Position numbers and translations under genes: made by a program. Below the pieces are notes generated by a model. The model had not been told where the DNA came from, searched no databases, and worked only from the letters and a program-made list of their open reading frames with translations. Positions 8,331 to 62,646 of a DNA stretch of 64,000 nt are shown piece by piece. The first letter of the stretch is position 1. Every line of letters starts with the position of its first letter. The stretch comes from Terriglobia bacterium (lineage in GTDB: Bacteria; Acidobacteriota; Polarisedimenticolia; Polarisedimenticolales; JAIQFR01). The stretch covers positions 17,071-81,070 of the forward strand of contig JAIQFR010000009.1 in assembly GCA_020073205.1 (NCBI GenBank), in the 5' to 3' direction.

Positions 8331-8999
8331 CTACCGATGCCGGGCGACGCCGACCCTCGGGCAGTCGAGGGAGACCGGGCACTCGGAGCAGAGCGGCGAG
8401 ACCGGCTTGCAGACCCGCTGCCCGTGCCGGACCAGGATCTCGTTGATCGGGATCCAGTGCCGCCGGGGCAGCACCTCGCGCAGCGCCTCCTCGGTTTCGA
8501 CGGGGTGCCTCGTCTCGACCCACCCCAGCCGGTTCGAGATCCGGTGGACGTGGGTGTCGACGCAGATCCCGGGCTTGCCGAACCCGAGGGTCACCACGAG
8601 GTTCGCGGTCTTCCGTCCGACCCCGGGCAGCTCGAGCAGCTCTTCGATCGTGTCGGGAACGCGGCCGCCGTGCCGCTCGAGCAGCCTCCGGCTGATCCCC
8701 CGGATCTGGACGGCCTTCCTGCGGTAGAAGCCGACCGGATAGATCCGCCTCGCGATGGTCCGGGCGGGGAGCGCGAGCATGGCCGCCGGGCCCTTCGCGC
8801 GGGCGAAGAGCCGCTCCGTCGCGGGGTACGTGACCTCGTCCTTCGTGCGCAGCGAGAGGACGCACCCGATCAGGATCCGGAACGGATCCGGGCCGTTCGC
8901 GTCCTTGAAACGCGTGGTCTCGTACCGGCGCGCGAGCTTCCGCACGACCCAGTTCATCGCGGCGCGATCGGCCGGGGAGCGCGAGGTCAGGGCAGCCAC
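8331..8999 (-). CDS. nth: Endonuclease III family DNA glycosylase/lyase
   Basis: It has the HhH-GPD region [23 protein letters not shown] and a C-terminal 4Fe-4S cluster loop [17 protein letters not shown]. The start is GTG at 8999, with ATG at 8957 as an alternative. Confidence 0.9.
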
Positions 9000-11389: not shown

Positions 11390-11459
11390 GGCGCGCTCCG
11401 TTCGCGAGGGCCGACATTCTAACCCCGCACCTGAGGTCCGGCCCCGGCTCGCGCGTAGC

Positions 11460-11489
11460 TTGAACTCCCTCGGGCACCGGGGCGAGAAT
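11460..11489 (+). promoter_or_regulatory. Candidate promoter TTGAAC-N18-GAGAAT immediately upstream of the MgtA-type gene
   Basis: TTGAAC at 11460-11465 and GAGAAT at 11484-11489. The ATG at 11498 is only 8 nt downstream, so the transcript may be leaderless. Confidence 0.3.
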
Positions 11490-11497
11490 GAGCTTGG

Positions 11498-14038
11498 ATG
11501 GAGCCGCAACTTCCACCTTTCTGGAGCGTACCCGCCGCGGAGGTCCTGAGACGGTTCGAGACCGCCCCAGGCGGCCTCTCCGCGGCCGAGGCCGCCGACC
11601 GCGCGAAGCGCTGCGCGGGCCGCCGCTTATCGCCCAAGAAGCGCACGGACGCCTTGACGCTCCTCCTATCGCAGTTCTCGAGCCCCATCGTGCTCATGCT
11701 CCTCGGCGCCACCGTGATCTCGGTCTTCCTGCGCGATAACACCGACGCCGCGATCATCCTCGTCATCGTGGCGGCCAGCGGCCTGTTGGGGTTCTGGCAG
11801 GAGCGGGGGGCGGCGGGAGCCGTGGAGAAGCTCCTCTCGCTCGTCGAAGTCAAGACCCGCGTGCTGCGGGATGGCGCGCCGCACGACGTTCCCCTGACCG
11901 ACGTCGTGCCCGGCGACGTCGTGCTCCTCTCGGCCGGCGCCACGGCCCCGGGCGACTGCCTGCTCCTCGAGGCGCGAGACCTCTTCGCGGACGAGGCCAC
12001 CCTCACCGGCGAGACGTTCCCGGTCGAGAAGTCCGTCTCGGTCCTGGACGCCGGTACGCCGCTCGCCAAGCGGACGAACGCCGTCTTCATGGGCACCCAC
12101 ATGGTTTCCGGCACGGCCACGGCGGTGGTGGTGGCGACCGGAAGGGATACGGAGTTCGGCGCCGTCTCGGAACGCCTCAAGCTGCGCGCTCCCGAGACCG
12201 ACTTCGAGCGCGGGGTGCGGCGCTTCGGCTATCTGCTCCTGGAGGTGACCCTGCTGCTGGTGATCGGCATCTTCGCCTTCAACGTCTACCTCCACCGCCC
12301 CGTTCTCGATTCCTTCCTGTTCTCGATGGCGCTGGCCGTGGGCCTGACCCCGCAGCTCCTTCCGGCGATCGTCAGCATCAACCTCGCTCACGGCGCGCGC
12401 CGCATGGCCGAGCAGAAGGTCATCGTCAAGCGCCTGGCTTCGATCGAGAACTTCGGTAGCATGAACGTGCTGTGCACGGATAAGACCGGCACCATCACTG
12501 AGGGGGCCGTCACGCTCCAGTCCGCCAACGACCTGGACGGACAGGCGAGCGATCGGGCGCTGCTCTACGCCTACCTGAACGCCTCCTTCGAGACGGGCTT
12601 CCCGAGCCCCATCGATGCCGCGATCCGCAATCACGGCAGCATCGACATCTCGGGCTGGAAGAAGCTGGACGAAGTCCCCTACGACTTCCTCCGCAAGCGC
12701 CTCTCCATCCTCGCGGCCGGCCCCGAAGGCCACCTGATGATCACCAAGGGGGCCCTGGCCCAGATACTGGAGGTGTGCACCACCGCCGAGACCGCGGCGG
12801 GAGCCCCGATACCGCTGGAGAGCGTGCGGGAACAGATCGAGGCGCAGTACGTCCGGTACAGCGGCGATGGCCAGCGCACCCTCGGCATCGCCTGCAGGCG
12901 GCCAGGCACTGAAGCCAGGATCGGCAAGGAGAGCGAAGCCGGCATGAGCTTCGTCGGCTTCATCCTGTTCTCCGACCCACCCAAGCCCGGCATCGAGGCG
13001 ACCGTCGGCCGGCTGCGCGAGCTCGGCGTCGATCTCAAGGTCATCACGGGGGACAACGCACTCGTGGCCGCCACCGTGGCGCGCGCGATCGGGCTCGGTG
13101 GCGCCCGGGTGCTTTCGGGACATGGGCTGAGGCGGATGAGTGACGGGGCGCTCCTCGCCCGGGTCGGCCAGGTGGACGTCTTCGCCGAGGTGGAGCCCAA
13201 CCAGAAGGAGCGCATCATCCTGGCCTTGCGCAAGGCGGGCAACGTGGTCGGCTACATCGGCGACGGGATCAACGACGCCTCGGCGCTGCACGCCGCGGAC
13301 GTGGGCCTGTCGGTCGAAAGCGCCGTGGACGTCGCCAAGGAGGTCGCCGACATCGTGCTGCTGGAAAAGGACCTGAACGTGCTGATCGCGGGCGTACGGG
13401 AGGGGCGGACCACCTTCGCCAACACGCTGAAGTACGTGTTGATGGCCACGAGCGCCAACTTCGGCAACATGTTCAGCATGGCCGGCGCCTCGCTGCTGCT
13501 GCCTTTCCTCCCGCTCCTGCCCAAGCAGATCCTGCTCACCAACCTGCTCACCGACATGCCGGAGATGACCATCGCCAGCGATCGCGTCGACGCCGAGATG
13601 CTGGCCAGGCCCCGCCGTTGGGACATCGGCTTCATCCGCTCCTTCATGCTGACCTTCGGCGTGCTGAGCTCGGTCTTCGACTACCTGACCTTCGGCGCGC
13701 TCCTGTATTTTCTCCGCGCCGGCACCGATCAGTTCCGCACCGGCTGGTTCGTCGAGTCGGTGCTCTCCGCATCCCTCATCGTCTTGGTGGTCCGCAGCCG
13801 CCGCCCCTTCTTTCGCAGCCGACCGGGGAGGCGCCTGCTGCTGGCGACCCTGGGCGTGGCGGCGGTCACGCTGGTGCTGCCTTTCCTCCCCTTCGCGCCC
13901 GCCCTGGGGTTGACGCGGCTGCCCGCGTCCTTCCTGGCTCTGCTCGCTCTCATCGTCGCGATGTACATCGTCTCCGGGGAGCTCGCGAAGCGCTTCTTCT
14001 ACCGCCATTTCGAACCGGCGCCTGCCGGCCGCCCGTGA
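11498..14038 (+). CDS. mgtA: P-type ATPase, MgtA-like (Mg2+-importing, type IIIB)
   Basis: It carries the DKTGTITEG phosphorylation motif, TGDN and GDGINDASAL. The N-terminal region and 846-aa length are MgtA-like. Confidence 0.8.
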   Translation: MEPQLPPFWSVPAAEVLRRFETAPGGLSAAEAADRAKRCAGRRLSPKKRTDALTLLLSQFSSPIVLMLLGATVISVFLRDNTDAAIILVIVAASGLLGFWQERGAAGAVEKLLSLVEVKTRVLRDGAPHDVPLTDVVPGDVVLLSAGATAPGDCLLLEARDLFADEATLTGETFPVEKSVSVLDAGTPLAKRTNAVFMGTHMVSGTATAVVVATGRDTEFGAVSERLKLRAPETDFERGVRRFGYLLLEVTLLLVIGIFAFNVYLHRPVLDSFLFSMALAVGLTPQLLPAIVSINLAHGARRMAEQKVIVKRLASIENFGSMNVLCTDKTGTITEGAVTLQSANDLDGQASDRALLYAYLNASFETGFPSPIDAAIRNHGSIDISGWKKLDEVPYDFLRKRLSILAAGPEGHLMITKGALAQILEVCTTAETAAGAPIPLESVREQIEAQYVRYSGDGQRTLGIACRRPGTEARIGKESEAGMSFVGFILFSDPPKPGIEATVGRLRELGVDLKVITGDNALVAATVARAIGLGGARVLSGHGLRRMSDGALLARVGQVDVFAEVEPNQKERIILALRKAGNVVGYIGDGINDASALHAADVGLSVESAVDVAKEVADIVLLEKDLNVLIAGVREGRTTFANTLKYVLMATSANFGNMFSMAGASLLLPFLPLLPKQILLTNLLTDMPEMTIASDRVDAEMLARPRRWDIGFIRSFMLTFGVLSSVFDYLTFGALLYFLRAGTDQFRTGWFVESVLSASLIVLVVRSRRPFFRSRPGRRLLLATLGVAAVTLVLPFLPFAPALGLTRLPASFLALLALIVAMYIVSGELAKRFFYRHFEPAPAGRP

Positions 14039-14074
14039 CGAGGTTTCTCGAGAGCCGGCTCATCGAAGGTCGAC

Positions 14075-15634
14075 ATGTGGGTCGTCGGCGCCGTATGCGC
14101 GCTCGCTGCCATGGGCGCGGGCACGGAGGAGGTGGCGCTCGGAACGCCGATCGTGGCAGTGCGCGTCGAGCGCCACGATGTCTACGATCTCGACGACCCG
14201 GCCACGTCCAGGTGGCCCTACCGCTGGGTCGACGCCTTGCACATCCTGACCCGCGAGAACTTCATTCGCTCCTTGCTGGTCGTCCACGTCGGCGACCCTC
14301 TCGATCCGACGCGCCTCGCCGAGAGCGAGCTGATCCTGAGAAGCACGGGCTTCCTCAACCCGGTGCACATCTCGGCGCACCCGGTCCCCGGTGGAGCCGA
14401 AGTGTTGGTGGAGACCCACGACCAGTGGACGACCGGCGTCGGCATCGACGTCGGCATCTCCGGGAACGGCGGGCATTCCAGCGCGAGCATCTCGGAGGAC
14501 AACCTCTTCGGCCTGGGCAAGAGCATCCTTCTCGAGTTCGGCTCCGACCCCGAGCGCACGACCACGACCTTCCGTTACAGGGACCTCACCTTCCTGAGCA
14601 CCCGCTGGCAGCTCGAGCTCGAGCACAAGAAGTCCTCCGACGGGTCCACGGACTTCTTTCAACTCCAGTATCCGTTCTTCGCCATTCTGACGCCGCGGGC
14701 CGGCGGCGCCGCGTGGCGGCGCGAGGGGCTGCAGGAGTACCTCTGGTCGGGCGGCGAGCGGCGTGTGGTGGGCCAGGTCGACACCCGCAGCTTCGACGTG
14801 TGGGGTGGGCTGCGGCTGCCGGGCGACGGCATCCTCACGGACCGCCTCACCCTCGGAGTGTTCGGCGAGAGAGCCCTCTTCCACGACTGGCAACGCCTCG
14901 ACGGCTCCCCGTATCCCCAGCCGCAAGACCGCGACCTCCGGGGCATCGAGGTGGGCTGGGAGCACCAGATCTTCAACTGGAGAGTGGTGCAGGGGTTCCG
15001 AGCGTGGCTGCGGCAGGAGGACCTGCCGCTGGGGCCCAACTGGCAGGTGACGGCCGGCCCTTCGCTTCCGGCGTTCGGCGCTGACCGGGCCCGCTTGCGC
15101 TATCGAGGCTCGCTCACCGTGGGACAGATGACGGGTCGGACGTATTCCTGGCTGGTGGGCAGCCTCTCGGGTCGGCTGGAGCGGGGCGCCTTCGCCAACG
15201 GCGTCACCCACCTCGAGCTGGGGGGCGCGCTCACCGGAACAGCGGGCTGGCGGATGCGTTTGGCGGCCGATATCGGCCACAAGCTCGATGGCGAGCAGCA
15301 GCTCACGCTGGGGGCCGATTCCGGCCTTCGCGGCTACGACCCCAGGACCTTCGACGGCACGTCGAGGATGGTGACCAATCTGGAGTGGCGTCGCCGCATC
15401 ACCGGCGAGCTCCTCCACGTGGCGGCCCTGGGGTTCACGGTATTCGCCGACGGCGGCAGGACGTGGAAGCCACGGATCGGGCCGCCCACCGACGGGTGGC
15501 GTGGCAACGTGGGCTGCGGGCTTCTCGCGGAGGTCACCCGCGCCTCCGTGGTGCGCATCCTCCGCTTGGAGGTTGCGCTCCCGGATCGCGGCAAGGGCCC
15601 GGTGTTCCAGATCACCACCGAATCGCTGTTCTGA
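14075..15634 (+). CDS. Omp85/BamA-TamA family outer-membrane protein (POTRA plus surface-antigen barrel)
   Basis: The N-terminal segment is POTRA-like (VRVERHDVYDL..ILTRENFIRSLLVVHVGDPLDPTRLAESELILRSTGFLNPV). The C-terminal barrel is D15-like (LGADSGLRGYDPRTFDG...FTVFADGGRTW). Confidence 0.7.
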   Translation: MWVVGAVCALAAMGAGTEEVALGTPIVAVRVERHDVYDLDDPATSRWPYRWVDALHILTRENFIRSLLVVHVGDPLDPTRLAESELILRSTGFLNPVHISAHPVPGGAEVLVETHDQWTTGVGIDVGISGNGGHSSASISEDNLFGLGKSILLEFGSDPERTTTTFRYRDLTFLSTRWQLELEHKKSSDGSTDFFQLQYPFFAILTPRAGGAAWRREGLQEYLWSGGERRVVGQVDTRSFDVWGGLRLPGDGILTDRLTLGVFGERALFHDWQRLDGSPYPQPQDRDLRGIEVGWEHQIFNWRVVQGFRAWLRQEDLPLGPNWQVTAGPSLPAFGADRARLRYRGSLTVGQMTGRTYSWLVGSLSGRLERGAFANGVTHLELGGALTGTAGWRMRLAADIGHKLDGEQQLTLGADSGLRGYDPRTFDGTSRMVTNLEWRRRITGELLHVAALGFTVFADGGRTWKPRIGPPTDGWRGNVGCGLLAEVTRASVVRILRLEVALPDRGKGPVFQITTESLF

Positions 15635-47879: not shown

Positions 47880-48317
47880 CTACGCGGCCTTGAGATCCGA
47901 CGTGCAATGCGGGCAGCGAGTCGCCTTCAGCGGGATCATCGACAGGCAGCGGCTGCACTCCTTCGTGCTGGGCGCCGCCGGGGGAGCTTCCTTCTTGAGG
48001 CGATTCATCTGCCGGATGAGCAGGAAGATCACGAAGGCGACGATCAGGAAGTCGATCACGGTGTTGATGAACGCGCCGTAGTTGATCGTCGCCGCGCCGG
48101 CCGCCTTCGCCGCCGCGAGGGAGGGGTGCCCTTGACCCGACAGGTCGACGAACAGGTTCGAGAAGTCCACCTTGCCCAGCAGGAGCCCGATCGGGGGCAT
48201 CAGGATGTCGTTGACCACGGACGATATGATCTTCCCGAACGCGGCGCCGATGATGATGCCCACGGCCATGTCGACCACGTTCCCCTTCATCGCGAATTCC
48301 TTGAACTCCTTCAGCAT
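47880..48317 (-). CDS. mscL: Large-conductance mechanosensitive channel MscL with a C-terminal CxxC...CxxC tail
   Basis: [33 protein letters not shown] at 48317 follows AAAGGAGGAA. The tail is [22 protein letters not shown]. Confidence 0.9.
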
Positions 48318-48406
48318 GGGTTCCTCCTTTTCTCTCGTTGGCTCGCCATCGCTGCTCGTCCGGGGGCCGCCGAGCCGGCCTGTCGCGCCGCTCAACCGTT
48401 TCATCC

Positions 48407-48454: not shown

Positions 48455-48763
48455 ATGAAAGTCGGCGACGACGAATACCCCATCGACGGCAATGGCTTCC
48501 TCCAGCACCCGGAGACGTGGGGACCCGCGGTGGCGGAGGCGATCGCCCGCGAAGAGGGGATACCCGAGATGACCGGGCCGCACTGGGCGGTGGTGAATTT
48601 CATCCGGACGTACTGGATGGAGCACGATCTCGCGCCGCCCGTGCGCGTCCTCTGCAAGGAGGCGAACCTCGGGGTCCGCGACGTGTTCAGACTGTTCCGG
48701 TCGGGCCCGGCCAAGGGCGCGTGCCGAATCGCCGGCCTCCCGAAGCCCGACGGCTGCGTCTAG
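48455..48763 (+). CDS. dsrC: DsrC/TusE-family sulfur-relay protein with both C-terminal cysteines (DsrC-type)
   Basis: 102 aa. The C-terminus is GPAKGACRIAGLPKPDGCV, a Cys-x10-Cys-Val terminus. ATG at 48455 follows GAGGCGGAG. Confidence 0.85.
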   Translation: MKVGDDEYPIDGNGFLQHPETWGPAVAEAIAREEGIPEMTGPHWAVVNFIRTYWMEHDLAPPVRVLCKEANLGVRDVFRLFRSGPAKGACRIAGLPKPDGCV

Positions 48764-48773
48764 GCCGGCTCCC

Positions 48774-49417
48774 ATGGCGTCCCTGTCCCTCGTGCTGCTC
48801 GTGACGTCCGCCGTGTGGGCGGCGGCGGCGCTCGCGGTCCAGGCGAGCGCGGCGCGCCGCGGGATCCGCGCGCCCCGGGCGCCGGCGGCGGGGCGGGCGG
48901 CGCGCGGCATCCTCTACGGTTTCACGACCGCCATGCTGCCGACGAGGAAGGAATCGGCGGGACGGCACCCCGTCGCCTTCACCGCGGGCCTGCTGCTCCA
49001 TCTCGGCGTCGCGGCGTCGCTCCTCACCGTGCTGCTCTCCGCGCGCTCGCCCCGCCTCTCGCTCTCTCCTCGTGGCGCCTCCTCCTGGCGCCGCTCGCCG
49101 GGGCGGGGGTCGCGGCGGGCCTGCTCCTCCTGGTGAAGCGGCTCGCGACCGCGGAGCTCCGGAGGATCAGCCCTCCCGACGACTACCTCGCGAGCCTGAT
49201 GATCGCGGCGCTCCTTTCGGGTGCTGTGGCCTTCTGGGCCGGCGTCCTGTCCGCCGTCGCGCTCAGGATCGTCGCGACGATCCTGCTCGTCTATCTTCCC
49301 GTCGGGAAGCTCCGCCACGCGGTCTTCTTCTACCTCGCTCGAGCCGACCTGAGCGGGAGGCTGGGGTTCCGCGGAGTCTATCCCCCCGGCGGAGGCGGCG
49401 ATGGCGGACGCGGCTGA
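48774..49417 (+). pseudogene. NarI/DsrM-like membrane (cytochrome b-type) subunit, apparently frameshifted near 49040-49050
   Basis: Frame A (from 48774) reads TM1 plus PTRKESAGRHPVAFTAGLLLHLGVAASLLTVLLSA. Frame B continues LALSSWRLLLAPLAGAGVAAGLLLLVKRL..PPDDYLASLMIAALLSG..YLPVGKLRHAVFFYLAR, a NarI-like xKLxH motif. Neither frame alone gives a sensible membrane protein. Confidence 0.6.
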
Positions 49418-50759
49418 TCGCGCGGGCCGCGTCGATCTCGTCGCGGCGCTCCGCGCCCTCGACGGGGTCGCGGGAAGCCGCGCGGAGCTGCACGCGAAGG
49501 CGTGCGTCCGCTGCGGGCTGTGCGGCCAGAGCTGCCACTTCTACCTGGCCGACCCGGTGCCGGAGAACCTCCCGGCGGCGAAGGTCGAGAAGCTCGCGTC
49601 GCTGCTCCGCGGACGCCGCTCGCTCCTCGGCCGAAACGCCCCCTGGCTCTCCCGCGCTCGAGACCTCACGCCGGACGCGCTCGAGGAGCTGGCGGACGCG
49701 GTCTTCGGGCGGTGCACCGGGTGCGGCCGCTGCTCGCTCCACTGCTCGGTCGGCCTCGACGTCTCGGCCGTGATGCAGGCGGCCCGGCGGGTGCTGGGGG
49801 CGGCGGGGCTCACCCCCTCCGGGTTGAGGCAGACCCTCGACAACCAGATCCGCGACGGAAACCAGATGTCCATCCCCCGGGAGGAGCTGGTCGAGACCGC
49901 GTCATGGCTCTCGGAGGAGCTGGCGCGGGAGACGGGGGACAAGGAGGCCCGCGTCCGCGTGGACGAGACCGGGAGCCGCGTGCTCTACCTCGTCAACCCC
50001 CGCGAGGTGAAGTTCTTCCCTCTCTCGCTCCAGGCGGCGGCCGGGGTGTTCCACGCGGCGGGAGAGAGCTGGACGCTGTCGAGCCGCGTGTTCGACGTGA
50101 CGAACTACGGCTTCTTCGCGGCGGACGACGCTTCCGCGGCGGAGCTGACGCGCCGTGCCGTGGAAGAGGCGAAGCGCCTCGGCGCCTCCGAGATCGTGGT
50201 GTCGGAGTGCGGCCACGGTTTCCGGTCCTTCCGCTGGGAAGGTCCCGAGTGGCTCGACGGCGCGTACCCCGTCCGGGTCAGGAGCGTTCTCGAGCTGCTC
50301 GACGAGTACCTCGCGGGGGACCGGCTGCTCGTCGACCCTTCGAGGAACGCGCTGCCTCTGACCCTCCACGACCCGTGCAACCTGGTCCGCTGGGGCGGGA
50401 TCGTCGACCCGCAGCGGCGGGTGCTCGCGCGCGTGGCGGAGAAGCTCGTCGAGATGACGCCGAACCGCGAGCAGAACTACTGCTGCGGCGGCGGCGGCGG
50501 GCTCCTGGCCATGGAGGAGTACGGCGAGCGGAGGATCTCGAGCGGCGCGATCAAGGCGGCCCAGATTCGCGACACGGGGGCGCGGATCGTGGCCTGCCCC
50601 TGCCACAACTGCGCCGACCAGCTCCTCGAGCTCGCGCGGGTCCACGCCCTCGAGGTCGAGATCCGCTCGGTGGTCGAGATCGTCTACGACGCCATTGACT
50701 GGAGCGGCATCGCCTCCCGCTCGCGGCCCGTGGCCGAGGACGCCGGCCGAGATGCTTAG
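49401..50759 (+). CDS. HdrD/DsrK-like Fe-S protein (two ferredoxin-type 4Fe-4S motifs plus two CCG domains)
   Basis: CVRCGLCGQSCHFY and CTGCGRCSLHCSVG are the ferredoxin-type motifs. The CCG-type motifs are ECGHGFRSF..DPCNLVR and NYCCGGGGG..ACPCHNCADQL. It overlaps the upstream membrane gene by 17 nt. Confidence 0.8.
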   Translation: MADAADRAGRVDLVAALRALDGVAGSRAELHAKACVRCGLCGQSCHFYLADPVPENLPAAKVEKLASLLRGRRSLLGRNAPWLSRARDLTPDALEELADAVFGRCTGCGRCSLHCSVGLDVSAVMQAARRVLGAAGLTPSGLRQTLDNQIRDGNQMSIPREELVETASWLSEELARETGDKEARVRVDETGSRVLYLVNPREVKFFPLSLQAAAGVFHAAGESWTLSSRVFDVTNYGFFAADDASAAELTRRAVEEAKRLGASEIVVSECGHGFRSFRWEGPEWLDGAYPVRVRSVLELLDEYLAGDRLLVDPSRNALPLTLHDPCNLVRWGGIVDPQRRVLARVAEKLVEMTPNREQNYCCGGGGGLLAMEEYGERRISSGAIKAAQIRDTGARIVACPCHNCADQLLELARVHALEVEIRSVVEIVYDAIDWSGIASRSRPVAEDAGRDA

Positions 50760-51558
50760 CCGGTTCCTGATCCTGCCGCTCGTGATCGGGGCGTCGGCCC
50801 TCGGCGCCGCCGAGGCCGGCGCGTTCCGGGTCGGACCCTGGGGGCTCACCTACGCCCGCTACGATGCCGCGCTCTTCGGCCCCGAGCAGCCGCTCCCCCT
50901 CGTCCTCGATGCGGAAGGCATCGCGCTCGGCCCGGGCCGCAAGCTCGAGGGAGCCCGCCTGCTCGTGATCAAGGCGGAGCGGCGGTGCGAGCTGTGGGTG
51001 GGCGACCGCATGGTCAAGGCGTATCGGATCCAGCTCAGCCAGCAATCGAGGGGAGCCAAGAGCCGGCGCTACGACCAGCGCACGCCCGAGGGGAACTACG
51101 CGATCTGCGCCCATCGGCCGTCGAAGTATCACCGCAGCCTGTGGATCAGCTACCCCGGCCTCGAGGACGCCGATCGGGGCGTGAAGGAGAAGCGGATCGG
51201 CGAGGCTCAGCGCCGGAAGATCGCCGAGGCGCTCGATCGCGGCGAATGCCCGCCCCAGAACACGCGCCTCGGCGGGCTTATCATGCTCCACGGCCAGCAG
51301 CGGTCGCTCACGCGCTCGCTCCGCCGCGCTCACCGCCGGGAGCGCGCCGCGGCGCGCACGGATTTCGGAGAGGGGGACGCGGACCCCGGCGCGATGGGCG
51401 AGTACCACGATTGGACCGCGGGGTGCATCGCCTTGTTCAATCCGGACATTCGCGAGCTGTACGACCTGCTCGCCGACGGTACGCCGGTGTCGATCGTCGC
51501 CTTAGGCCCCGTGACGCGCCCGGCCCTCCCGACCCCGGCGGGTGGAGCGGGGCGATGA
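50752..51558 (+). CDS. YkuD-fold L,D-transpeptidase family protein (YafK/COG3034-like) with an insertion before the catalytic Cys
   Basis: It has a signal-like N-terminus. Family motifs are RTPEGNYAICAHRPSKYHRSLWISYP..D and GGLIMLHGQ...DWTAGCIALFNPDIRELYDLLADGTPVSIV. The start overlaps the upstream stop by 8 nt. Confidence 0.7.
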   Translation: MLSRFLILPLVIGASALGAAEAGAFRVGPWGLTYARYDAALFGPEQPLPLVLDAEGIALGPGRKLEGARLLVIKAERRCELWVGDRMVKAYRIQLSQQSRGAKSRRYDQRTPEGNYAICAHRPSKYHRSLWISYPGLEDADRGVKEKRIGEAQRRKIAEALDRGECPPQNTRLGGLIMLHGQQRSLTRSLRRAHRRERAAARTDFGEGDADPGAMGEYHDWTAGCIALFNPDIRELYDLLADGTPVSIVALGPVTRPALPTPAGGAGR

Positions 51559-53801
51559 ACGAAGCCATCCTCGGGATCTCCGCCTACTACCACGACAGCG
51601 CCGCGTGCCTCGTGGTGGGCGGGCGCATCGTGGCGGCGGCCCAGGAGGAGCGCTTCACCCGCCTCAAGCACGACTCCGGGTTCCCGAGCCATGCGGTCGC
51701 CTACTGTCTCGAGCAGGGGGGCCTCCGGTCCGCCTACGAGCTCGATTACGTCGTCTTCTACGACAAGCCCGTCCTCAAGTTCGAGAGGCTGCTCGAGACC
51801 TACCTGCGGTACGCGCCGCGAGGGATCCGCTCGTTCGTCAAGGCCATGCCTCTCTGGCTCAAGAAGAAGCTCTGGATGCGGGAGAACATCGGCGAGGAGC
51901 TGGACTACGACGGGAAGATCCTCTTCACCGAGCATCACCAGGCCCACGCCGCGAGCGCGTTCTTCCCCTCGCCGTTCCCGGCGGCCGCGATTCTGACCCT
52001 CGACGGGGTCGGCGAATGGGCGACGGCAAGCCTCGGACTGGGCGAGGGGAACACGATCCGGATCCTCAAGGAGATCCACTTCCCGCACTCGCTGGGGCTC
52101 TTCTACTCCGCCTTCACGTATTTCACCGGATTCAAGGTCAACAGCGGCGAGTACAAACTCATGGGTCTCGCGCCTTACGGTGAGCCGACGTACGCGGACC
52201 TGATCCTGGACGAGCTGATCGACCTCAGGGAGGACGGCTCGTTCAAGTTGAACCTCCGGTACTTCGATTACTGCGCCGGGCTCCGGATGACGAACCGGCG
52301 GTTCGATCGCCTGTTCGGCGGGCCGCCGCGGCCGCCGGAGGGCAGGCTCACGCAGCGCGAAATGGACATGGCGGCGTCGATCCAGGTCGTGACCGAGAAG
52401 GTCATGCTCAACATGGCCCGGTTCGCCCGTGAGCAGACCGGCTCCCCCAACCTCGTGATGGCGGGCGGCGTGGCCCTGAACTGCGTGGGGAACGGCAAGA
52501 TCCTCCGCGAGGGGCTCTTCCGGCGGATCTGGATCCAGCCCGCCGCCGGAGACGCCGGTGGAGCGTTGGGGGCGGCGCTCTTCGTCCATCACCAGGTGCT
52601 CGGCCACGGCCGCGTGGTGGACGGATCGAAGGACCTCCAGCAAGCCACGCTGCTCGGCCCCTCCTATGGCGACGTCGAGATCGGCCGATTCGTCGCCGAA
52701 CGCGGGATCCGTGCGGCACGTTTCGACGACTTCGACGCTCTCCTGGATCGCGTGACCGACCTGATGCAGCAGGAGAACGTGATCGGCTGGTTCCAGGGAC
52801 GGATGGAATTCGGACCCCGTGCGCTCGGATCCCGCTCCATCCTCGGCGACGCGCGAAGTCGCGAGATGCAGAGCAAGATGAATCTCAAGATCAAGTTCCG
52901 GGAGTCGTTCCGTCCCTTCGCCCCGTCCGTCATGAAGGAGCACGCCCGCGACTACTTCGAGCTGGACGTCGAGAGCCCCTACATGCTCCTCACCGCGCCG
53001 GTCCACCCGCAACGACGCCTGCCGGTTCAGGGTGACCGTCACCGTGGCCTGGACAAGCTCAAGACGATCCGTTCCACCGTGCCGGCGATCACGCACGTGG
53101 ACTACTCGGCGCGCATCCAGACCGTTTCGCGCGAGGACCATCCGCGCTACCACCGCCTTCTGGAGAAGTTCTACGAGAAGACGGGGTGCCCGGTGATCGT
53201 GAATACTTCGTTCAACGTCCGGGGCGAGCCGATCGTGGCCACACCGGAGGACGCCTACCGTTGCTTCGCCCGCACGAACATGGACTACCTCGTCCTGGGG
53301 AGTTACCTCGTCGATCGGCGGGATCAGAGCCTCCCGGCCCGGGACGCCGCGCGGACGAAGGAACTCGAACTGGATTGTAGGAGGGCGAAAGCCGTGCGCA
53401 GGAAGAAGCCGGGGGAAGCAACGCAGGCGCGTCGGTTCGCCCTGATCCTCGTCGTCTTCTTCCTCGCCCTGGCCGCGTTCTCGGCGTGGCGGAGAAGCGG
53501 GGACCGCGCCGTCGCGTGGTCGTCCGCGGCCGCCGCCGTTTCTCTCTCGGCGCTCCTGTTCTTCCCCCTGTGGCTGCGCCTCTTCCGCGTGTGGATGAAG
53601 TTCGCGGAAGCGCTGTCGTGGGTCATGACCCGGGTCATCCTCGGCGTCTTCTACTACGTGGTGCTCGCTCCCTTCGCGCTCCTGTCGCGCGGCTTCCGCG
53701 AGGACCCCCTCGACCTGGCCTGGAAGGACGGGAAGCCGACGTACTGGGTCGAGAGGGAGGAGCGGGAAGCCACGCTTACGTCCTGCGAGAAGATGTTCTA
53801 G
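51555..53801 (+). CDS. NodU/CmcH-family carbamoyltransferase fused to a C-terminal SxtJ-like membrane domain
   Basis: MNEAILGISAYYHDSAACLV..EERFTRLKHDSGFP..VNTSFNVRGEPIV. The frame continues without a stop into FALILVVFFLALAAF...LFRVWMKFAEALSWVMTRVILGVFYYVVLAPFALLSRGFREDPL..KPTYWV. Its start forms an ATGA overlap with the upstream gene. Confidence 0.8.
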   Translation: MNEAILGISAYYHDSAACLVVGGRIVAAAQEERFTRLKHDSGFPSHAVAYCLEQGGLRSAYELDYVVFYDKPVLKFERLLETYLRYAPRGIRSFVKAMPLWLKKKLWMRENIGEELDYDGKILFTEHHQAHAASAFFPSPFPAAAILTLDGVGEWATASLGLGEGNTIRILKEIHFPHSLGLFYSAFTYFTGFKVNSGEYKLMGLAPYGEPTYADLILDELIDLREDGSFKLNLRYFDYCAGLRMTNRRFDRLFGGPPRPPEGRLTQREMDMAASIQVVTEKVMLNMARFAREQTGSPNLVMAGGVALNCVGNGKILREGLFRRIWIQPAAGDAGGALGAALFVHHQVLGHGRVVDGSKDLQQATLLGPSYGDVEIGRFVAERGIRAARFDDFDALLDRVTDLMQQENVIGWFQGRMEFGPRALGSRSILGDARSREMQSKMNLKIKFRESFRPFAPSVMKEHARDYFELDVESPYMLLTAPVHPQRRLPVQGDRHRGLDKLKTIRSTVPAITHVDYSARIQTVSREDHPRYHRLLEKFYEKTGCPVIVNTSFNVRGEPIVATPEDAYRCFARTNMDYLVLGSYLVDRRDQSLPARDAARTKELELDCRRAKAVRRKKPGEATQARRFALILVVFFLALAAFSAWRRSGDRAVAWSSAAAAVSLSALLFFPLWLRLFRVWMKFAEALSWVMTRVILGVFYYVVLAPFALLSRGFREDPLDLAWKDGKPTYWVEREEREATLTSCEKMF

Positions 53802-54979
53802 CCGTTCCGATCGGCGGCGATCTCCCCGACCGCGCGAACCGCCGTCTCCACGTGCTCGCGCGTGTTGAACGGTCCGATGGAGAAGCGGACGGTGCCGCGC
53901 GGCGCCGTGCCGAGGTGCTCGTGGACGAGCGGCGAGCACTGGAGGCCGGTGCGGGTCTGGATGCCGTACTCCACGTCGAGGATCGTGCCGATGTCGGAGG
54001 GGTCGTAGCCGTCCACGGTGATCGACGAGACCGCGACGCGACGGTCGAGCCGCTTCGTGCCGTGGAGCCGCACCCCCTTGATCTGGGAGAAGCCGTCCTC
54101 GAGCCTCCCCAGGAGCTCCAGCTCGTGCCGCAGGATCGCGTCCATCCCCCGCCCCTCGATCCAGTCGTGTCCCGCCCTGAGCCCGGCGATCCCGAGGAGG
54201 TTGAGCGTCCCGGCCTCGAGACGGTACGGGTACTCCTCCAGGTGGTACAGCTCCGCGGACCGCACGCCCGTCCCTCCCCAGACGGTCGCCGTGACGGAGG
54301 CGTCGTCGGCCACGCACACCCCTCCCGTCCCCGTCGGGCCGAACAGACCCTTGTGCCCGGTGAAGCAGACGAAGTCGATCAGGCTCACGGCCATGTCGAT
54401 CGCGACGACGCCCGCGGTCTGCGCCGCGTCCACCGCGAACAGGACACCCGCCTCCCGGCAGACCTTTCCGATGGCCGAGACGTCTTGCACGGTGCCGATC
54501 ACGTTCGACGCGTGGATCACGATCACGAGCTTCGTGTTCTTCCGGATGGCCTTCCGGATCTCCCCGGGGTCCACGTACCCCTCGCCGTCGGGCCTCACGA
54601 AGGTGGCCTCGGCTCCCAGCCTGACCATGTGGTTCACGGGCCGGATCACCGAGTTGTGCTCGAGGGTGGTCGTGACGATGTGGTCCCCGGGAACGATCGT
54701 CCCCTTGATCACCACGTTCAGCGCGTGGGTGGCGTTGGCGGTGAACACCAGCCGGTTCGGGTCCTTCGCCTTCCCCGCCCGCACGAGGCTCCCGTTGAAC
54801 ATCGCGGTGAGCTTCCGGCGGGTGCCGTGGACCACCTCCTCCGCCTCGAGGGCCAGGTCGCACCCTGTCCGGCCGGGGTTGACGCCGCACTGCCGGTAGA
54901 ACCGGCTCATCGCGTCGTGCATCTCGTCCGGCTTGGGGAACGTCGTCGCCGCGTTGTCGAGGTAGATCACCTTCTGCAT
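53798..54979 (-). CDS. Class V aminotransferase-fold PLP enzyme (cysteine desulfurase family)
   Basis: IYLDNAATTFPKP, ASNVIGT and FTGHKGLFGPTGTGG (PLP-binding Lys). It is 393 aa. Confidence 0.85.
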   Translation of the reverse strand: MQKVIYLDNAATTFPKPDEMHDAMSRFYRQCGVNPGRTGCDLALEAEEVVHGTRRKLTAMFNGSLVRAGKAKDPNRLVFTANATHALNVVIKGTIVPGDHIVTTTLEHNSVIRPVNHMVRLGAEATFVRPDGEGYVDPGEIRKAIRKNTKLVIVIHASNVIGTVQDVSAIGKVCREAGVLFAVDAAQTAGVVAIDMAVSLIDFVCFTGHKGLFGPTGTGGVCVADDASVTATVWGGTGVRSAELYHLEEYPYRLEAGTLNLLGIAGLRAGHDWIEGRGMDAILRHELELLGRLEDGFSQIKGVRLHGTKRLDRRVAVSSITVDGYDPSDIGTILDVEYGIQTRTGLQCSPLVHEHLGTAPRGTVRFSIGPFNTREHVETAVRAVGEIAADRNG

Positions 54980-55010: not shown

Positions 55011-56844
55011 TCACTTGCCGCCCGCCCGGCCCAGGATCGCCTCCATCTCGTCCATCGTCTGGTTCATCTCCTTCATGGCCGCGGCGAACGGCGCCGACGT
55101 GGTCATGTCCACCCCGGCCTCCCGCAGGAGATCGATGGGGTACTCGGAGGAGCCGGACTCGAGCATGTGGAGATAGGCGTCGCGCCGCGACGTCGGCGCC
55201 AAGGCGGCTCTAGCCTCCTCCAGGATCCCGCGGGAGAGCGAGATCGAGGCGACCAGGCTCGTGGCGTACTGGTAGACGTAGAAATTCCAGTAGAAGTGCG
55301 GGATGTAGGCCCACTCGATCCCGTACAGGTCCTTGACCTCCGTGACCCCCTGGTCGTGCCCGTAGTACTGGCGGAGGAGCTTCAGGTAGAGCTTCGAGAG
55401 GCCCTCGCCGGTGAGCGTCTCCCCGCGCTCCGCGGTCTCGTGGATCGTGAGCTCGAACTCCGCGAACAGCGTCTGCCGGAACAGGGTGCTCCGCAGGAGG
55501 TCCAGGTGGCTCCCCAGCAGGAACAGGCGGGTCGAGTCGTCCTTGGCGTCGCGGAGCATCTTCCGGAAGAGCAGGTTCTCGTTGAGCGTCGACGCCACCT
55601 CCCCGACGAAGGTCGAGTAGTCGTGGCTGACGTACGGCTGGGTCGTGTCCGAGAGGTACGAGTGCATCGAGTGCCCCGATTCGTGCGCCAGCGTCGAGAC
55701 GTCGTCGTAGTTCCCCATGAAGTTCAGGAGCTCGTACGGGTGGACGCCGTACACGGTCTCGCTGTACGCGCCCGAGCGCTTTCCCTTGGAGGGGAGGAAG
55801 TCCACCCAGCGCGCGGCGTACCCCTTGCGGAGCGTCGCGACGTACTCCTTTCCGAGGGGGGCGAACGCCTCGAGGGTCAGGTCCATCGCCTGCTCCGGCG
55901 TGAACGTCGCGTTGGCCTCCTTCACGATCGGGGCGTACAGGTCCTCGTAGCCGAGCTTGTCGAGCCCCATCATGCGCTTCCTCAGACCGAGGTACCGGTG
56001 GAGCGTCGGCAGGTTCGCGTGCACGTCGGAGATCAGCTGGCGGTAGACCGCGGTGGGAATGGCGTACTCGAAGAGCGCGTCGTCCAGCGAGCCCTTGAAC
56101 TTGTGGACGTCCCGGTCGAACACGTGCGCCTTCACCTGGGCGTAGAGCGACGTGCCCATCGTGCGCTCGAACTCGCGGTAGCGCGTCCAGAAGGCGTCGA
56201 ACACCTTCCCGCGATCCCCGCGATCCGGCGCCGCCCGGTACTTGGTGTACGCCGACGCGTCGAGTCGGATCTTCTCGCCGGTGGACAGCGTGACCTCGGG
56301 ATAGGGGAAGTCCGCGTTGGTGAGGACCGAGTAGATGGCCTCCCCCGCGTTCTCGAGGTTCCCCGCGCGCGCCACGATCCCCTCTTCCTCGGGGCTCAGC
56401 GTGTGCGGCTTGCGCCGGAGGATGTCCTCCAGGAAGAACGCGTACGGCTTGAGGCGGGGCTCCAAGGCCACGAACCCCCTCACCCTCGCAGGGTCCAGCG
56501 AGAGGATCTCGGGCCTCAGGTACGCGGTGGCCGTGCGGTACTCCACGAAGGCGTGGTCGGCCTCCTGCAGCATCTCCTGGCTCCGGCCCACCCTCGTGTC
56601 CTGATCGCGCAGCCAGCTGGCGTACGAGCGGACCCTCGCGAAAGCGGGCGACCTCGGGGATCCGCTTCAAGGCGCGCTCGCGGGTCGACCTCCACGCCGC
56701 CTCGTCGGCGAACACGTCCTTCAGGTTCCAGGTGTACTTCTCCGGGATCTCCGAGCGCTCGACGGCGCCCGCGTGGGGAACGAGAGGCGTCACGAGCGCC
56801 GCCGCGGCCAGGAGGCCGATGGCGCGGGAAAGCACGCTTCGCAT
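55011..56844 (-). pseudogene. pepF: Oligoendopeptidase F (M3B), with the frame disrupted near 56630-56645
   Basis: The main body (55011-56591) carries TLAHESGHSMHSY. The signal peptide and N-terminus (MRSVLSRAIGLLAAAALV..ERSEIPEKYTWNLKDVFADEAAWRS..IPEVARFR, ATG 56844 after GAGGAG) are in a different frame. The main frame already reads RVRSYASWLRDQDT upstream of its first Met. Confidence 0.8.
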
Positions 56845-60265: not shown

Positions 60266-62056
60266 TCAATCCCTCCAGCGGTCCTTCATCACGGACCTGG
60301 AGAAATCCTGCCCTCGCAGGTAGTCATGGCAGCCTTTCCCGCCCTCGAGGTGGAACGTCGTCAGACGCGTCGTCGAGGACTGCCAGAACATGGCACAAAC
60401 CGTCCCGGGCTTCTTGCAGTGTCCGGTGTGGCCCGTGTCCTCCCAGGCGTCGTGCGCGTTGGCGGGCGCCGGAGGCATGTTGACGAGCCCCAGCGAGTGG
60501 CCGATCTCGTGCACGCTGTCGCTCTTCTGCGTCGGGTCTCGATCCGCCGCGACGTTCGAATCCCTGAGGGCCCCCGTGCACAGGAAGAGGTGATGGCTCC
60601 CGCCGCCCCATCCGAGAGCGAGACCGGGGCCGGCCACCTTGATCTGGAGCTTGATCTTGAGCGGACGGGCCGGCGCGGGAGAGACCGAGGACAGGTCGAC
60701 CTTCACCTGCTTGAATCCGGGCTGCGTCGCGAGGGTCGACGTGCTGAGCGCGGCGTCCGGGATGTCCGTGAAGCTCCCGTTCTTGGGCTGGTATTGCGCG
60801 GCGACCTTCCACGGATGCGCCCCTCCACCGAACTTCCACAGGAAGAACCAGTCCGGCGAGGTCCACGTAAGGCCGGCAAGCGTGTCCTCGACGGTCTTGG
60901 TCTCGTTGTCCGTCTGAGCGTAGTCGATGGTCATGATGTGGCACTTGAACGGGGCCTCGCTGCCCGCGACGAAGTAGTTCTTCGCCTCGTCGCTCCGGTT
61001 CGTTCCGGTGGGCAGGTTGTCGACGTGGGTTGCCTCCGTGCGTGGGGTCTTCTCGATGAATTCCGCGAATACGGTATTGTACCCCGCTTCGAACGCCGAA
61101 GTGACCCCCGCGGGCAAGTCGAACTTCCCTCCCGAGCCGTCCTTCATCTCGGTGACGTGGTACCAGAACATCCTCCAGACCTTGTACGGGCCAGCGGTCA
61201 TGCCCCCTTTGTACCCGCCGTCCTTGGTGACCGACACCTTGAACTCGTCGCCGCCGTAAAGGGACGGGTAGAAGCTGACGACGGGCGTCCATCCCTTCGC
61301 GTCGAGCGACACCGTCGTCTTCTTGGCCCCGCCCGCCGAATCGAATCCCTCCGCGTCCGATCCGGTCAACCCCGTCTTGTTGCCTCCCCCGGGGGTCGAG
61401 TACCAGTACAGCGGCTGCCCGGCCAGCGACTTCGACTTGTCGCCACTCACCCACTCTGCCCTCGCCTTGAACTGGACGACGCGGCCGTACTCCCGGTGAG
61501 CCTTGGCGGCGTCCACTTTCTCGTCGAGGTTGATGTACTGCTTCCGTCCGGCCGGAGCGGCCGTCTTCTCCGCACCCGACTCCGTCCAGACCTCGACGAG
61601 CTCCACGAGCTTGATGTCGTCCGGCGGCGGAGGCGCAGGCGACGCGAGGGTCGGAGGCTTGCTCGGAGCCGGCGCGGGCGCCGCCGACGTCGCGGCGGCC
61701 GCTTCGCCGCCCTCCCACCGGGTCTGGACCGTGCGCAGGTAATCCTCGGCGAAGAGGATGGTCGCGACGGCGTCCCCGACGTCGCGACCCGAGCTCCCGA
61801 GGCGACTCGACGCCGATTCGGCCGAGGACGAGGCGCGCGGCCGAGTCAGGAACCCCGCCGCCAGCGCCGCGCCGGCGTCGCTCGCCAGGAGGTCGGCGAT
61901 CTGGTCCTCCGTGAGACGGCCGACGTCCACCCCCGGCCTCGCTCTGAGGAGCGCGCGGCGGAGCTTCCGGCCCGCGGAGGGGTCGCGTAGGGCTCTGATG
62001 AGGGCCGAACGGAGCTGGGAGTCCGCCAACAATACCCCCTTTCGGACCGGAGCCAT
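60266..62056 (-). CDS. Large hypothetical protein with a C-terminal HExxH zinc-protease-like domain (metzincin/archaemetzincin-like Cys pattern)
   Basis: HEIGHSLGL is encoded at 60497-60511, followed by GHTGHCKKPGTVCAM-x19-C. The N-terminus has no signal peptide, and a Pro/Ala-rich linker (APAPAPSKPPTLASPAPPPP) follows. I chose ATG at 62056 as the start; the track ORF extends to 62200. Confidence 0.65.
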   Translation of the reverse strand: MAPVRKGVLLADSQLRSALIRALRDPSAGRKLRRALLRARPGVDVGRLTEDQIADLLASDAGAALAAGFLTRPRASSSAESASSRLGSSGRDVGDAVATILFAEDYLRTVQTRWEGGEAAAATSAAPAPAPSKPPTLASPAPPPPDDIKLVELVEVWTESGAEKTAAPAGRKQYINLDEKVDAAKAHREYGRVVQFKARAEWVSGDKSKSLAGQPLYWYSTPGGGNKTGLTGSDAEGFDSAGGAKKTTVSLDAKGWTPVVSFYPSLYGGDEFKVSVTKDGGYKGGMTAGPYKVWRMFWYHVTEMKDGSGGKFDLPAGVTSAFEAGYNTVFAEFIEKTPRTEATHVDNLPTGTNRSDEAKNYFVAGSEAPFKCHIMTIDYAQTDNETKTVEDTLAGLTWTSPDWFFLWKFGGGAHPWKVAAQYQPKNGSFTDIPDAALSTSTLATQPGFKQVKVDLSSVSPAPARPLKIKLQIKVAGPGLALGWGGGSHHLFLCTGALRDSNVAADRDPTQKSDSVHEIGHSLGLVNMPPAPANAHDAWEDTGHTGHCKKPGTVCAMFWQSSTTRLTTFHLEGGKGCHDYLRGQDFSRSVMKDRWRD

Positions 62057-62226
62057 GACCTGGGGTAGTCGACCGCGGAGAGCATACACCCGAGCGCCGC
62101 TCCGACATGCACGAATCCGCTTGCCGGCGGCGCCGTGCCGCCGCCCCGGCCACGCGGTCGACCGCGAGTGGGGCGAGATCGCCATCTGCGATACGATCAC
62201 ACCCCCCGAGACGGAGGCCGGCTGCG

Positions 62227-62646
62227 ATGGCGGATGAACTTCAGTTCAGGATCGTCGCGCGCAGGGATCTGCAACCCGCGGACTGCCCGTGGTTCGACCC
62301 CGCACACCACGAGAGCGACGCGAGACGGGATCAGGTCCTTCTCGCGTACGCCGGCGACGAGTGCGTATCCTACGCGGTGTTCGAAGGACCGGGCGGGTAT
62401 GGCGGCGGCGACATCGAGCTCAAGTTCGTCGAGAATGCGCCCCGGCATCATCGCCGGGGCTTCGCGTTCAGAACCATCGAGGAGCTGATCCGTCGGTTTC
62501 CCGATCGGCTCGTCTGGGCGGTCGACGCTCATCCCCGAGCACCGATCCTGCTCCGTAGGGCGGGCTTTCTCTCACCGGACGATGTGAGGCACGATCGTGG
62601 CGGTTTCCGCATCGGAGATGCCTGGGTGCGGTTTCCGGCGGAGTGA
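62227..62646 (+). CDS. Hypothetical protein, possibly GNAT-like acetyltransferase
   Basis: 139 aa, divergent from the protease-like gene. VENAPRHHRRGFAFRTIEELI loosely resembles GNAT motif A, so the assignment is weak. Confidence 0.45.
   Translation: MADELQFRIVARRDLQPADCPWFDPAHHESDARRDQVLLAYAGDECVSYAVFEGPGGYGGGDIELKFVENAPRHHRRGFAFRTIEELIRRFPDRLVWAVDAHPRAPILLRRAGFLSPDDVRHDRGGFRIGDAWVRFPAE

Follow-up and report, generated by a model that had tools for sequence, protein, structure and literature searches.

A widely shared DsrC/DsrK-like gene core and its clade-specific neighbours in a Terriglobia metagenome-assembled genome

The locus

The genes considered here lie in a 64-kb window (the whole stretch of DNA that was analysed) of a Terriglobia (Acidobacteriota) metagenome-assembled genome. 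A DsrC-family gene is followed on the same strand by genes for a membrane subunit, a DsrK-like CCG iron-sulfur (Fe-S) protein, a YkuD-fold protein, a NodU/CmcH-family carbamoyltransferase and an SxtJ-family membrane protein, and the string is faced by a convergent cysteine desulfurase gene (Table 1). An earlier note, made from the sequence alone, treated the string as a single operon joining a DsrC/DsrMK-type thiol-redox module to envelope-modifying enzymes. With moderate confidence, we take it instead to be a composite of two layers: an old four-gene core, including the desulfurase gene, that would act as a cysteine-fed, quinol-linked reductase of DsrC persulfide, and a set of passengers specific to one clade.

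The genes are closely packed. The DsrC stop codon is separated by a 10-nucleotide (nt) gap from the next ATG (48774), and the genes that follow overlap successively, by 17 nt (membrane gene and dsrK-like gene), 8 nt (dsrK-like and YkuD genes; ATG at 50752) and 4 nt (YkuD and carbamoyltransferase genes; ATGA). Re-reading the coordinates confirms these spacings as the earlier note gave them, and its description of tight co-directional packing is essentially right. The passenger genes are probably co-transcribed with the dsrCMK-like genes, because there is neither room nor signal for their separate expression (the promoter scan being weak evidence on this point). The earlier note had also held that strong internal promoters or terminators would mark the association as coincidental. 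A consensus scan, which is uninformative in DNA that is ~70% GC throughout the window, yields no promoter-like site in the region and a single terminator-like site, at 53526-53539 within sxtJ, against an expectation of 2.2 from shuffled sequences. A search with Rfam models is negative for RNA elements over the whole window.

Table 1. Genes of the 47.5-56.8 kb region (core genes, passengers, neighbours) and three further open reading frames of the 64-kb window
Product	Positions	Strand	Length (amino acids)	Basis or remark
Two-Cys DsrC-family protein	48455..48763	+	102	PF04358, TIGR03342
HmcE/TmcC/DsrM-like membrane subunit, frameshifted	48774..49417	+		NCBIfam, comparison with relatives
DsrK/HmcF/TmcB-like cytoplasmic Fe-S protein	49401..50759	+	452	PF02754, PF13183
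TIGR01977-type cysteine desulfurase family protein, convergent	53798..54979	-	393	TIGR01977, PF00266
Secreted YkuD-fold (L,D-transpeptidase family) protein	50752..51558	+	268	PF03734
NodU/CmcH-family carbamoyltransferase	51555..53378	+	607	PF02543, PF16861
SxtJ-family membrane protein, from its own GTG	53394..53801	+	135	PF19588
Tmemb_14 protein		-		5' of the DsrC gene
MscL homologue	47880-48404	-		5' of the DsrC gene, following Tmemb_14
M3-family oligoendopeptidase, split over two frames	55020-56844	-		comparison with relative L081
Open reading frame	8987-11626	-	879	no Pfam family at E<=1e-5
Open reading frame	14039-15634	+	531	no Pfam family at E<=1e-5
Open reading frame	60266-62245	-	659	no Pfam family at E<=1e-5

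A four-gene core

The DsrK-like protein has more than 2483 homologues. Scanning one genome per species (GTDB) locates at least 576 species-level loci, of which the best 80 were taken with 10-kb flanks and searched by tblastn with all window proteins. About ten bacterial phyla are represented, with lineages that include Acidobacteriota, Planctomycetota, Gemmatimonadota, Bacteroidota, Zixibacteriota, Eisenbacteria, Aminicenantes and Coatesbacteria. DsrC and membrane genes are located 5' of the DsrK-like gene nearly everywhere. Of the 52 loci that extend at least 2.6 kb to each side, 46 contain DsrC, 2 contain YkuD and 1 contains a carbamoyltransferase, and in 41 a desulfurase gene adjoins the DsrK-like gene. 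The orientation of the desulfurase gene varies: it is convergent and downstream in 20 of these 41 loci; where it shares the strand, it is downstream in 14 and directly 5' of dsrC in 7.

Strict clustering, by coverage and identity, of all open reading frames (ORFs) within 7 kb on either side at 81 loci singles out four widely shared families: the DsrK-like protein (81 loci), the membrane protein (74), DsrC (60) and the desulfurase (59). Many of these loci end early, which lowers the counts. All other families are shadow ORFs or are confined to at most 11 loci. Judged by this distribution, the two-Cys DsrC, the ~210-amino acid (aa) membrane protein, the DsrK-like CCG protein and the TIGR01977 desulfurase are shown to make up an old and widely distributed module, which is also found on complete chromosomes (CP070815.1, CP070687.1, CP070755.1, OY761614.1, OY760195.1). 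The DsrC/M/K trio of the earlier note stands, and its constant partner, the desulfurase, lies just beyond the end at which that note closed the operon. No description of a module combining DsrC, DsrMK-like proteins and a cysteine desulfurase was found in the literature, a provisional result in that most subscription-journal papers were outside its scope. The large Dsr synteny study of Neukirchen et al. (2023) was confined to genomes that contain DsrABCMK.

DsrC and the DsrK-like protein

The DsrC-family assignment is secure (PF04358, E=3e-30, 105.1 bits against a threshold of 24.9; TIGR03342, 104.7 bits against a cutoff of 53.5). The C-terminus reads CRIAGLPKPDGCV and its arm ends ...GACRIAGLPKPDGCV; the C-x10-C-V ending that the earlier note described is thus borne out. 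A C-x10-C-x C-terminus is common to all 66 of the 66 complete DsrC homologues that adjoin DsrK-like genes, and the protein has the same length in every close relative. The arm also satisfies the DiSCo definition of DsrC (two cysteines on the C-terminal arm, together with a motif of the AGLPKPTGC type in which one mismatch is allowed; PMC8477390), from which it departs by a single T-to-D difference. Where a genome has no dsrAB, DiSCo scores DsrC matches as false positives (PMC8477390).

In the DsrK-like protein, two CxxCxxCxxxC motifs are accompanied by one complete CCG motif (C326...C361C362...C401xxC404) and by C270, an invariant cysteine that stands alone. In an alignment of 15 diverse sequences C35/38/41/45, C105/108/111/115, C270, C326, C361/362, C401/404 and D406 are invariant. 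Its matches to PF02754 and PF13183 agree with the earlier designation as an HdrD/DsrK-like CCG Fe-S gene. Scores on the NCBIfam models of individual proteins fall short of every cutoff (TmcB, 268 bits against 735; HmcF, 267 against 750; DsrK, NF045796, 217.6 against 400), and these cutoffs exclude it from the orthologues of DsrK, HmcF and TmcB. What it does match is the motif pattern published for DsrK, with one non-cubane cluster and one conserved non-ligating cysteine from a degenerate first CCG half (preprint 10.64898/2026.08.25.746951), equivalence to A. fulgidus Cys329 and Asp500 being judged at the level of motifs. Searches of the PDB with the protein and its profile return 9ojn_A ('iron-sulfur-binding reductase') and MvhB only, and no DsrK or HdrD chain.

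Of the known systems, DsrC-DsrMK(JOP) of dissimilatory sulfite reduction or oxidation (Desulfovibrio, Archaeoglobus, Allochromatium) is alike in having a small DsrC with two arm cysteines 10 residues apart, and a membrane gene followed by an HdrD-like CCG gene whose product has two ferredoxin-type motifs, one CCG motif and a lone cysteine (10.64898/2026.08.25.746951). It differs in that the window proteins are far below the DsrK and DsrM cutoffs, that DsrJOP and DsrAB genes are missing from the vicinity, that the membrane protein has ~210 aa and 2-3 conserved histidines where the DsrM model has 320 positions, and that the constant neighbour is a desulfurase and not a sulfite reductase. The best NCBIfam matches are instead to HmcEF and TmcBC of the Desulfovibrio transmembrane redox complexes, whose subunits are of similar size (models of ~220 and ~430-460 positions) and in which a membrane gene likewise precedes a CCG gene; here, however, scores are again below the cutoffs, no periplasmic cytochrome c (HmcA or TmcA) or other Hmc/Tmc genes are found, and the pair is always accompanied by a DsrC gene and usually by a desulfurase gene.

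The two-Cys DsrC with its near-canonical AGLPKPxGCV arm, within the tolerance of DiSCo (PMC8477390), could also point to a conventional role, in which dsrAB or asrABC is encoded elsewhere in the genome and the DsrC/DsrMK proteins recycle DsrC-trisulfide in sulfite reduction or oxidation. Some (peatland) Acidobacteria carry dsrAB (PMC6018796), and a few of the loci come from Desulfobacterota-like genomes. We consider this role quite unlikely. The membrane and DsrK-like proteins are paralogues of canonical DsrMK. The low DsrK score, exceeded by those on TmcB and HmcF, is matched by an even lower DsrM score of the membrane protein (below), and the gene that constantly accompanies them encodes a cysteine desulfurase. 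Apart from the cluster and the genes next to it, the 20 window ORFs of at least 300 aa that were surveyed include no dsrAB, apr or sat, in keeping with the earlier note's statement that the window is devoid of these genes, and dsrAB is not among the families common to the 7-kb flanks of the 81 loci. Moreover, many carriers come from groups, such as Phycisphaerae, Bacteroidales and Holophagaceae, that are not known for Dsr metabolism.

The membrane subunit

The membrane gene is frameshifted in the window. Its 644 nt are distributed over two frames: frame A comes to a stop at 49136, and the stretch shared with the dsrK-like gene lies in the other; alignment with L001 and L002, the closest Terriglobia genomes, places ~2 additional nt near 49050-49056, and a tblastn match with the intact 211-aa homologue of an 89%-identical relative (L081) is split over two frames. 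The gene is intact, with 201-215 aa, in every relative examined. The earlier note was right about the position and the overlap of this gene, but it is not the single ORF there described.

The reconstructed protein has 213 aa and ~5 hydrophobic helices. Its designation as NarI/DsrM-like is retained in a weak form only. NCBIfam matches are all far below the cutoffs (HmcE, E=5e-8, 32.8 bits against 275; TmcC, 1e-6; DsrM, NF038037, 0.0035, 16.6 bits against 300), there is no Pfam match (PF02665 included), and an hhalign comparison of the family with E. coli NarI matches a 27-residue loop alone, at a probability of 5%. H76, H181, K59, E60, R122, S132, D136, K178 and R199 are invariant in the family, 59 of 69 sequences have H65, and an invariant arginine is found 18 residues after H181. 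In the NarI type of di-haem cytochrome b, four transmembrane histidines ligate two haems b.

The loop at residues 112-138 (window ~49110-49190), LLLLVKRL..ELRRISPPDDY, resembles E. coli NarI 102-128 (LLLKRRLFSPRVRATTTGADIL). No other segment matches the DsrM model, and this loop may be a signature common to the membrane-subunit superfamily.

The cysteine desulfurase

The desulfurase, a class-V aminotransferase, is a member of the TIGR01977 family (EF2568/SclA-related; 411.8 bits against a cutoff of 377; also PF00266), whose characterised member is the selenocysteine lyase SclA. On the SclA model itself (NF040779) it scores 294.9 bits against 525. All 56 of the 56 sequences compared retain the pyridoxal phosphate-binding lysine (K210) and the active-site cysteine (C348).

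A cysteine desulfurase that acts ahead of a DsrC/TusE-family persulfide carrier is also a feature of the IscS-TusA-TusBCD-TusE relay of 2-thiouridine synthesis in E. coli. By analogy, the core might be a biosynthetic or trafficking relay that delivers sulfur, and possibly selenium, to a thiolated tRNA, a cofactor or an Fe-S assembly target, with the DsrK-like/membrane pair serving only to repair oxidised DsrC. The relation of the desulfurase to SclA would be compatible with such a relay, as would membership of TusE in the DsrC family (NF008562, E=6e-20). On the other hand, the TusE score, 71 bits against a cutoff of 191, is far too low, as is that for SclA; the conserved neighbours include no TusA, TusBCD, MnmA or SelD-like gene; and a dedicated membrane-anchored reductase would be unusual in this setting. 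In addition, TusE needs one cysteine only, whereas both cysteines of this carrier are invariant. A relay of this kind is therefore unlikely.

The passenger genes

The linkage of the core to the YkuD and carbamoyltransferase genes is of a different order. In the 80 species-level loci a YkuD gene is found 3' of the DsrK-like gene only twice, in L001 and L002, and a carbamoyltransferase gene is never adjacent (in one locus, from Eisenbacteria, such a gene lies ~5 kb off on the opposite strand). The arrangement is thus not conserved when the five genes in the same order are looked for across relatives; it is limited to a narrow Terriglobia clade.

Upstream of the string, the window has leucyl-tRNA synthetase and copper P-type ATPase genes, a backbone that it has in common with close relatives. 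Within the clade, 11 close relatives (counting the window; 71-100% identity of the DsrK-like protein) differ in what stands between the DsrK-like and desulfurase genes. The window (100%) and P0004 (82%) have YkuD, carbamoyltransferase and SxtJ genes. P0002 (89%) has carbamoyltransferase and SxtJ genes only, joined to dsrK by an ATGA overlap. P0005 (81%), L001 (81%), L002 (80%) and P0011 (72%) have YkuD only, as does P0008 (73%), in which a TamB-like gene comes next and the desulfurase gene is not adjacent. P0003 (82%) has YkuD and an unrelated 164-aa gene without a Pfam match, and P0007 (75%) and P0009 (71%) have neither YkuD nor carbamoyltransferase-SxtJ. In sum, 8 of the 11 have YkuD 3' of the DsrK-like gene, and 3 (the window, P0002 and P0004) have carbamoyltransferase-SxtJ. 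Because the passenger sets differ in this way, the gap between the dsrK-like and desulfurase genes is a variable slot that takes different cargo.

Each passenger has an existence of its own. The YkuD protein (PF03734, 51.5 bits against 23.4) has an N-terminal hydrophobic signal-like sequence and, as read from the sequence, a TAGC active-site-like motif; elsewhere, homologues that are 54-57% identical to it stand alone in unrelated surroundings. It resembles the YkuD L,D-transpeptidases and YafK (DpaA) in its above-threshold YkuD domain, its signal-like N-terminus and its T-x-G-C motif, but has a ~45-residue insertion between the HG and GC motifs and scores 21.3 bits against 365 on the YafK/DpaA model (NF040599). 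Of the earlier designation 'YafK-like' the YkuD fold is retained and YafK equivalence is not. From these features the protein is best described as an ordinary secreted envelope enzyme of the phylum.

In the carbamoyltransferase, the N- and C-terminal domains are both above threshold (PF02543, 339.5 bits; PF16861, 247.3 bits), and the SxtJ protein likewise matches its family (PF19588, 32.2 bits against 24.4). A search with the carbamoyltransferase through metagenomes gives 80 diverse, unrelated loci of relatives at 56-67% identity (L093-L172). SxtJ adjoins the carbamoyltransferase in 48 of these, usually downstream and sometimes upstream, and none of the 80 has DsrC, the membrane gene, a DsrK-like gene, YkuD or the desulfurase within 6 kb. 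Because SxtJ is so often at hand and Dsr-like genes never are, the carbamoyltransferase-SxtJ pair is a self-contained cassette. It shares the succession of the two carbamoyltransferase domains and SxtJ with the SxtI-SxtJ(-SxtK) and NodU/CmcH cassettes; unlike those, it is surrounded by no toxin, Nod-factor or antibiotic cluster, it scores 128.8 bits against 1000 on the NodU equivalog, and it shows an apparent one-base fusion. We know of no substrate of such a cassette outside saxitoxin clusters.

The apparent fusion, of 748 aa, arises at carbamoyltransferase codon 608 (53376-53378), which is TGT in the window and a TGA stop in relatives (L081, ...CTGGAT TGA AGGAGACCCCGGGAC GTG...; window, ...CTGGAT TGT AGGAGGGCGAAAGCC GTG...). 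The window retains the 15-nt in-frame spacer, the AGGAGG Shine-Dalgarno sequence and the GTG start of sxtJ (53394), and relatives have separate genes for a 607-aa carbamoyltransferase and a 135-aa SxtJ (the latter in L081 and P0004). We reject an evolved domain fusion on account of the one-base difference and the retention of the internal ribosome-binding site and start. Thus, both domains of the carbamoyltransferase::SxtJ fusion that the earlier note reported are present, and the fusion itself is the loss of a single stop codon, TGA to TGT.

These observations bear on the proposal that the DsrC/DsrMK-like proteins act as a thiol/disulfide relay in the membrane and in this way serve or control the periplasmic YkuD enzyme, through its catalytic cysteine, or a carbamoyltransferase-SxtJ envelope step, or both. 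In its favour are the co-directional genes with overlapping stops and starts and no terminator or promoter consensus between them, the persistence of YkuD after the dsrK-like gene in most close relatives, often with a 4-8 nt overlap, and the recurrence of the same six genes in P0004. (Given this recurrence, the arrangement is not unique to one genome; it was uniqueness that the earlier note had named as a sign of coincidence, the strictest of its refuting conditions.) Yet the link is missing from 78 of the 80 species-level loci, the YkuD and carbamoyltransferase-SxtJ genes come and go independently of each other, and homologues of the YkuD protein and of the carbamoyltransferase occur elsewhere without Dsr neighbours. 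There is also a problem of topology: DsrC and the DsrK-like protein have no export signal, whereas the YkuD protein has a signal-like N-terminus. DsrK and HdrD act in the cytoplasm, and we know of no route that carries DsrC thiol chemistry across the membrane. The relay is accordingly very improbable, and a system coupling DsrCMK to envelope enzymes is not supported by counts of YkuD in 2 of 80 loci, carbamoyltransferase in 0 of 80, and Dsr-like genes in 0 of 80 in the reverse direction. By the comparison of gene neighbourhoods, YkuD and carbamoyltransferase-SxtJ are shown to be clade-specific passengers and not parts of one conserved machine, and the 'fortuitous supra-operon' that the earlier note offered as its fallback is the better reading. 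A five-gene system would have joined cytoplasmic sulfur-redox chemistry to modification of the envelope; the comparative data point to a local accident of gene order.

Proposed function of the core

Cysteine desulfurases make a protein persulfide from L-cysteine, and in the present view of DsrC its partner is DsrAB. In the composite reading favoured here, the desulfurase would replace DsrAB as the enzyme that loads DsrC. It would convert L-cysteine to alanine, hold the sulfur as a persulfide and hand it to the penultimate cysteine of the flexible C-terminal arm of DsrC. The DsrK-like subunit would then take either the DsrC-bound sulfane sulfur or a DsrC disulfide formed by attack of the second cysteine, and would reduce this species at its single non-cubane [4Fe-4S] site. 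Electrons would pass from menaquinol through the membrane subunit to the DsrK-like subunit, with release of H2S and regeneration of DsrC. In DsrK-type reduction electrons come from the quinol pool (PMC10861901; preprint 10.64898/2026.08.25.746951). The scheme is proposed because it is the simplest reading of the conserved neighbourhood together with the invariant functional residues of DsrC, the CCG protein and the desulfurase. Taken one step further, the four genes might specify a DsrAB-independent sulfide pathway (cysteine + quinol -> alanine + H2S + quinone); we put this forward tentatively, as a possibility that is more doubtful than the composite nature of the string.

Several considerations weigh against these proposals. 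Transfer of sulfur from the desulfurase to DsrC is suggested by gene neighbourhood, and in the lineage of the window the desulfurase gene is convergent and therefore not co-transcribed with dsrCMK. Two invariant histidines (H76 and H181) plus H65 are not the four of the NarI type, which makes coupling to quinol through haem uncertain. The evidence on dsrAB covers the window and the 7-kb flanks, a part of each genome, and leaves the conventional role its small probability. A genuine frameshift in the membrane gene would mean that this organism has a broken module. As regards the passengers, YkuD is kept after the dsrK-like gene in 8 of the 11 close relatives over a range of 72-100% identity, usually with overlapping stop and start, so that a selective benefit of co-expression is conceivable.

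The frameshift is not an isolated lesion. Compared with the intact 635-aa homologue in L081, residues 1-69 of the M3-family peptidase are in one frame and residues 93-633 in another, the frame changing near 56640. Together with the membrane-gene frameshift and the loss of the stop codon, this makes three lesions in ~8 kb relative to an 89%-identical relative, and all three most likely reflect errors of an indel-prone metagenome assembly.

If the proposed pathway exists, cysteine or persulfide sulfur would be a respiratory electron sink, and an organic-sulfur route to DsrC would widen the range of organisms and of substrates that give sulfide by DsrC/DsrK chemistry; most of the phyla represented among the 80 loci inspected are not regarded as sulfur respirers. 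It would also provide a simple system of two to four proteins in which to study that chemistry.

Other features of the window

The MscL homologue encoded on the opposite strand has a C-terminal CxxC...CxxC stretch that is zinc-ribbon-like. The three long ORFs without a Pfam family (Table 1) have coding-like GC content at third codon positions.

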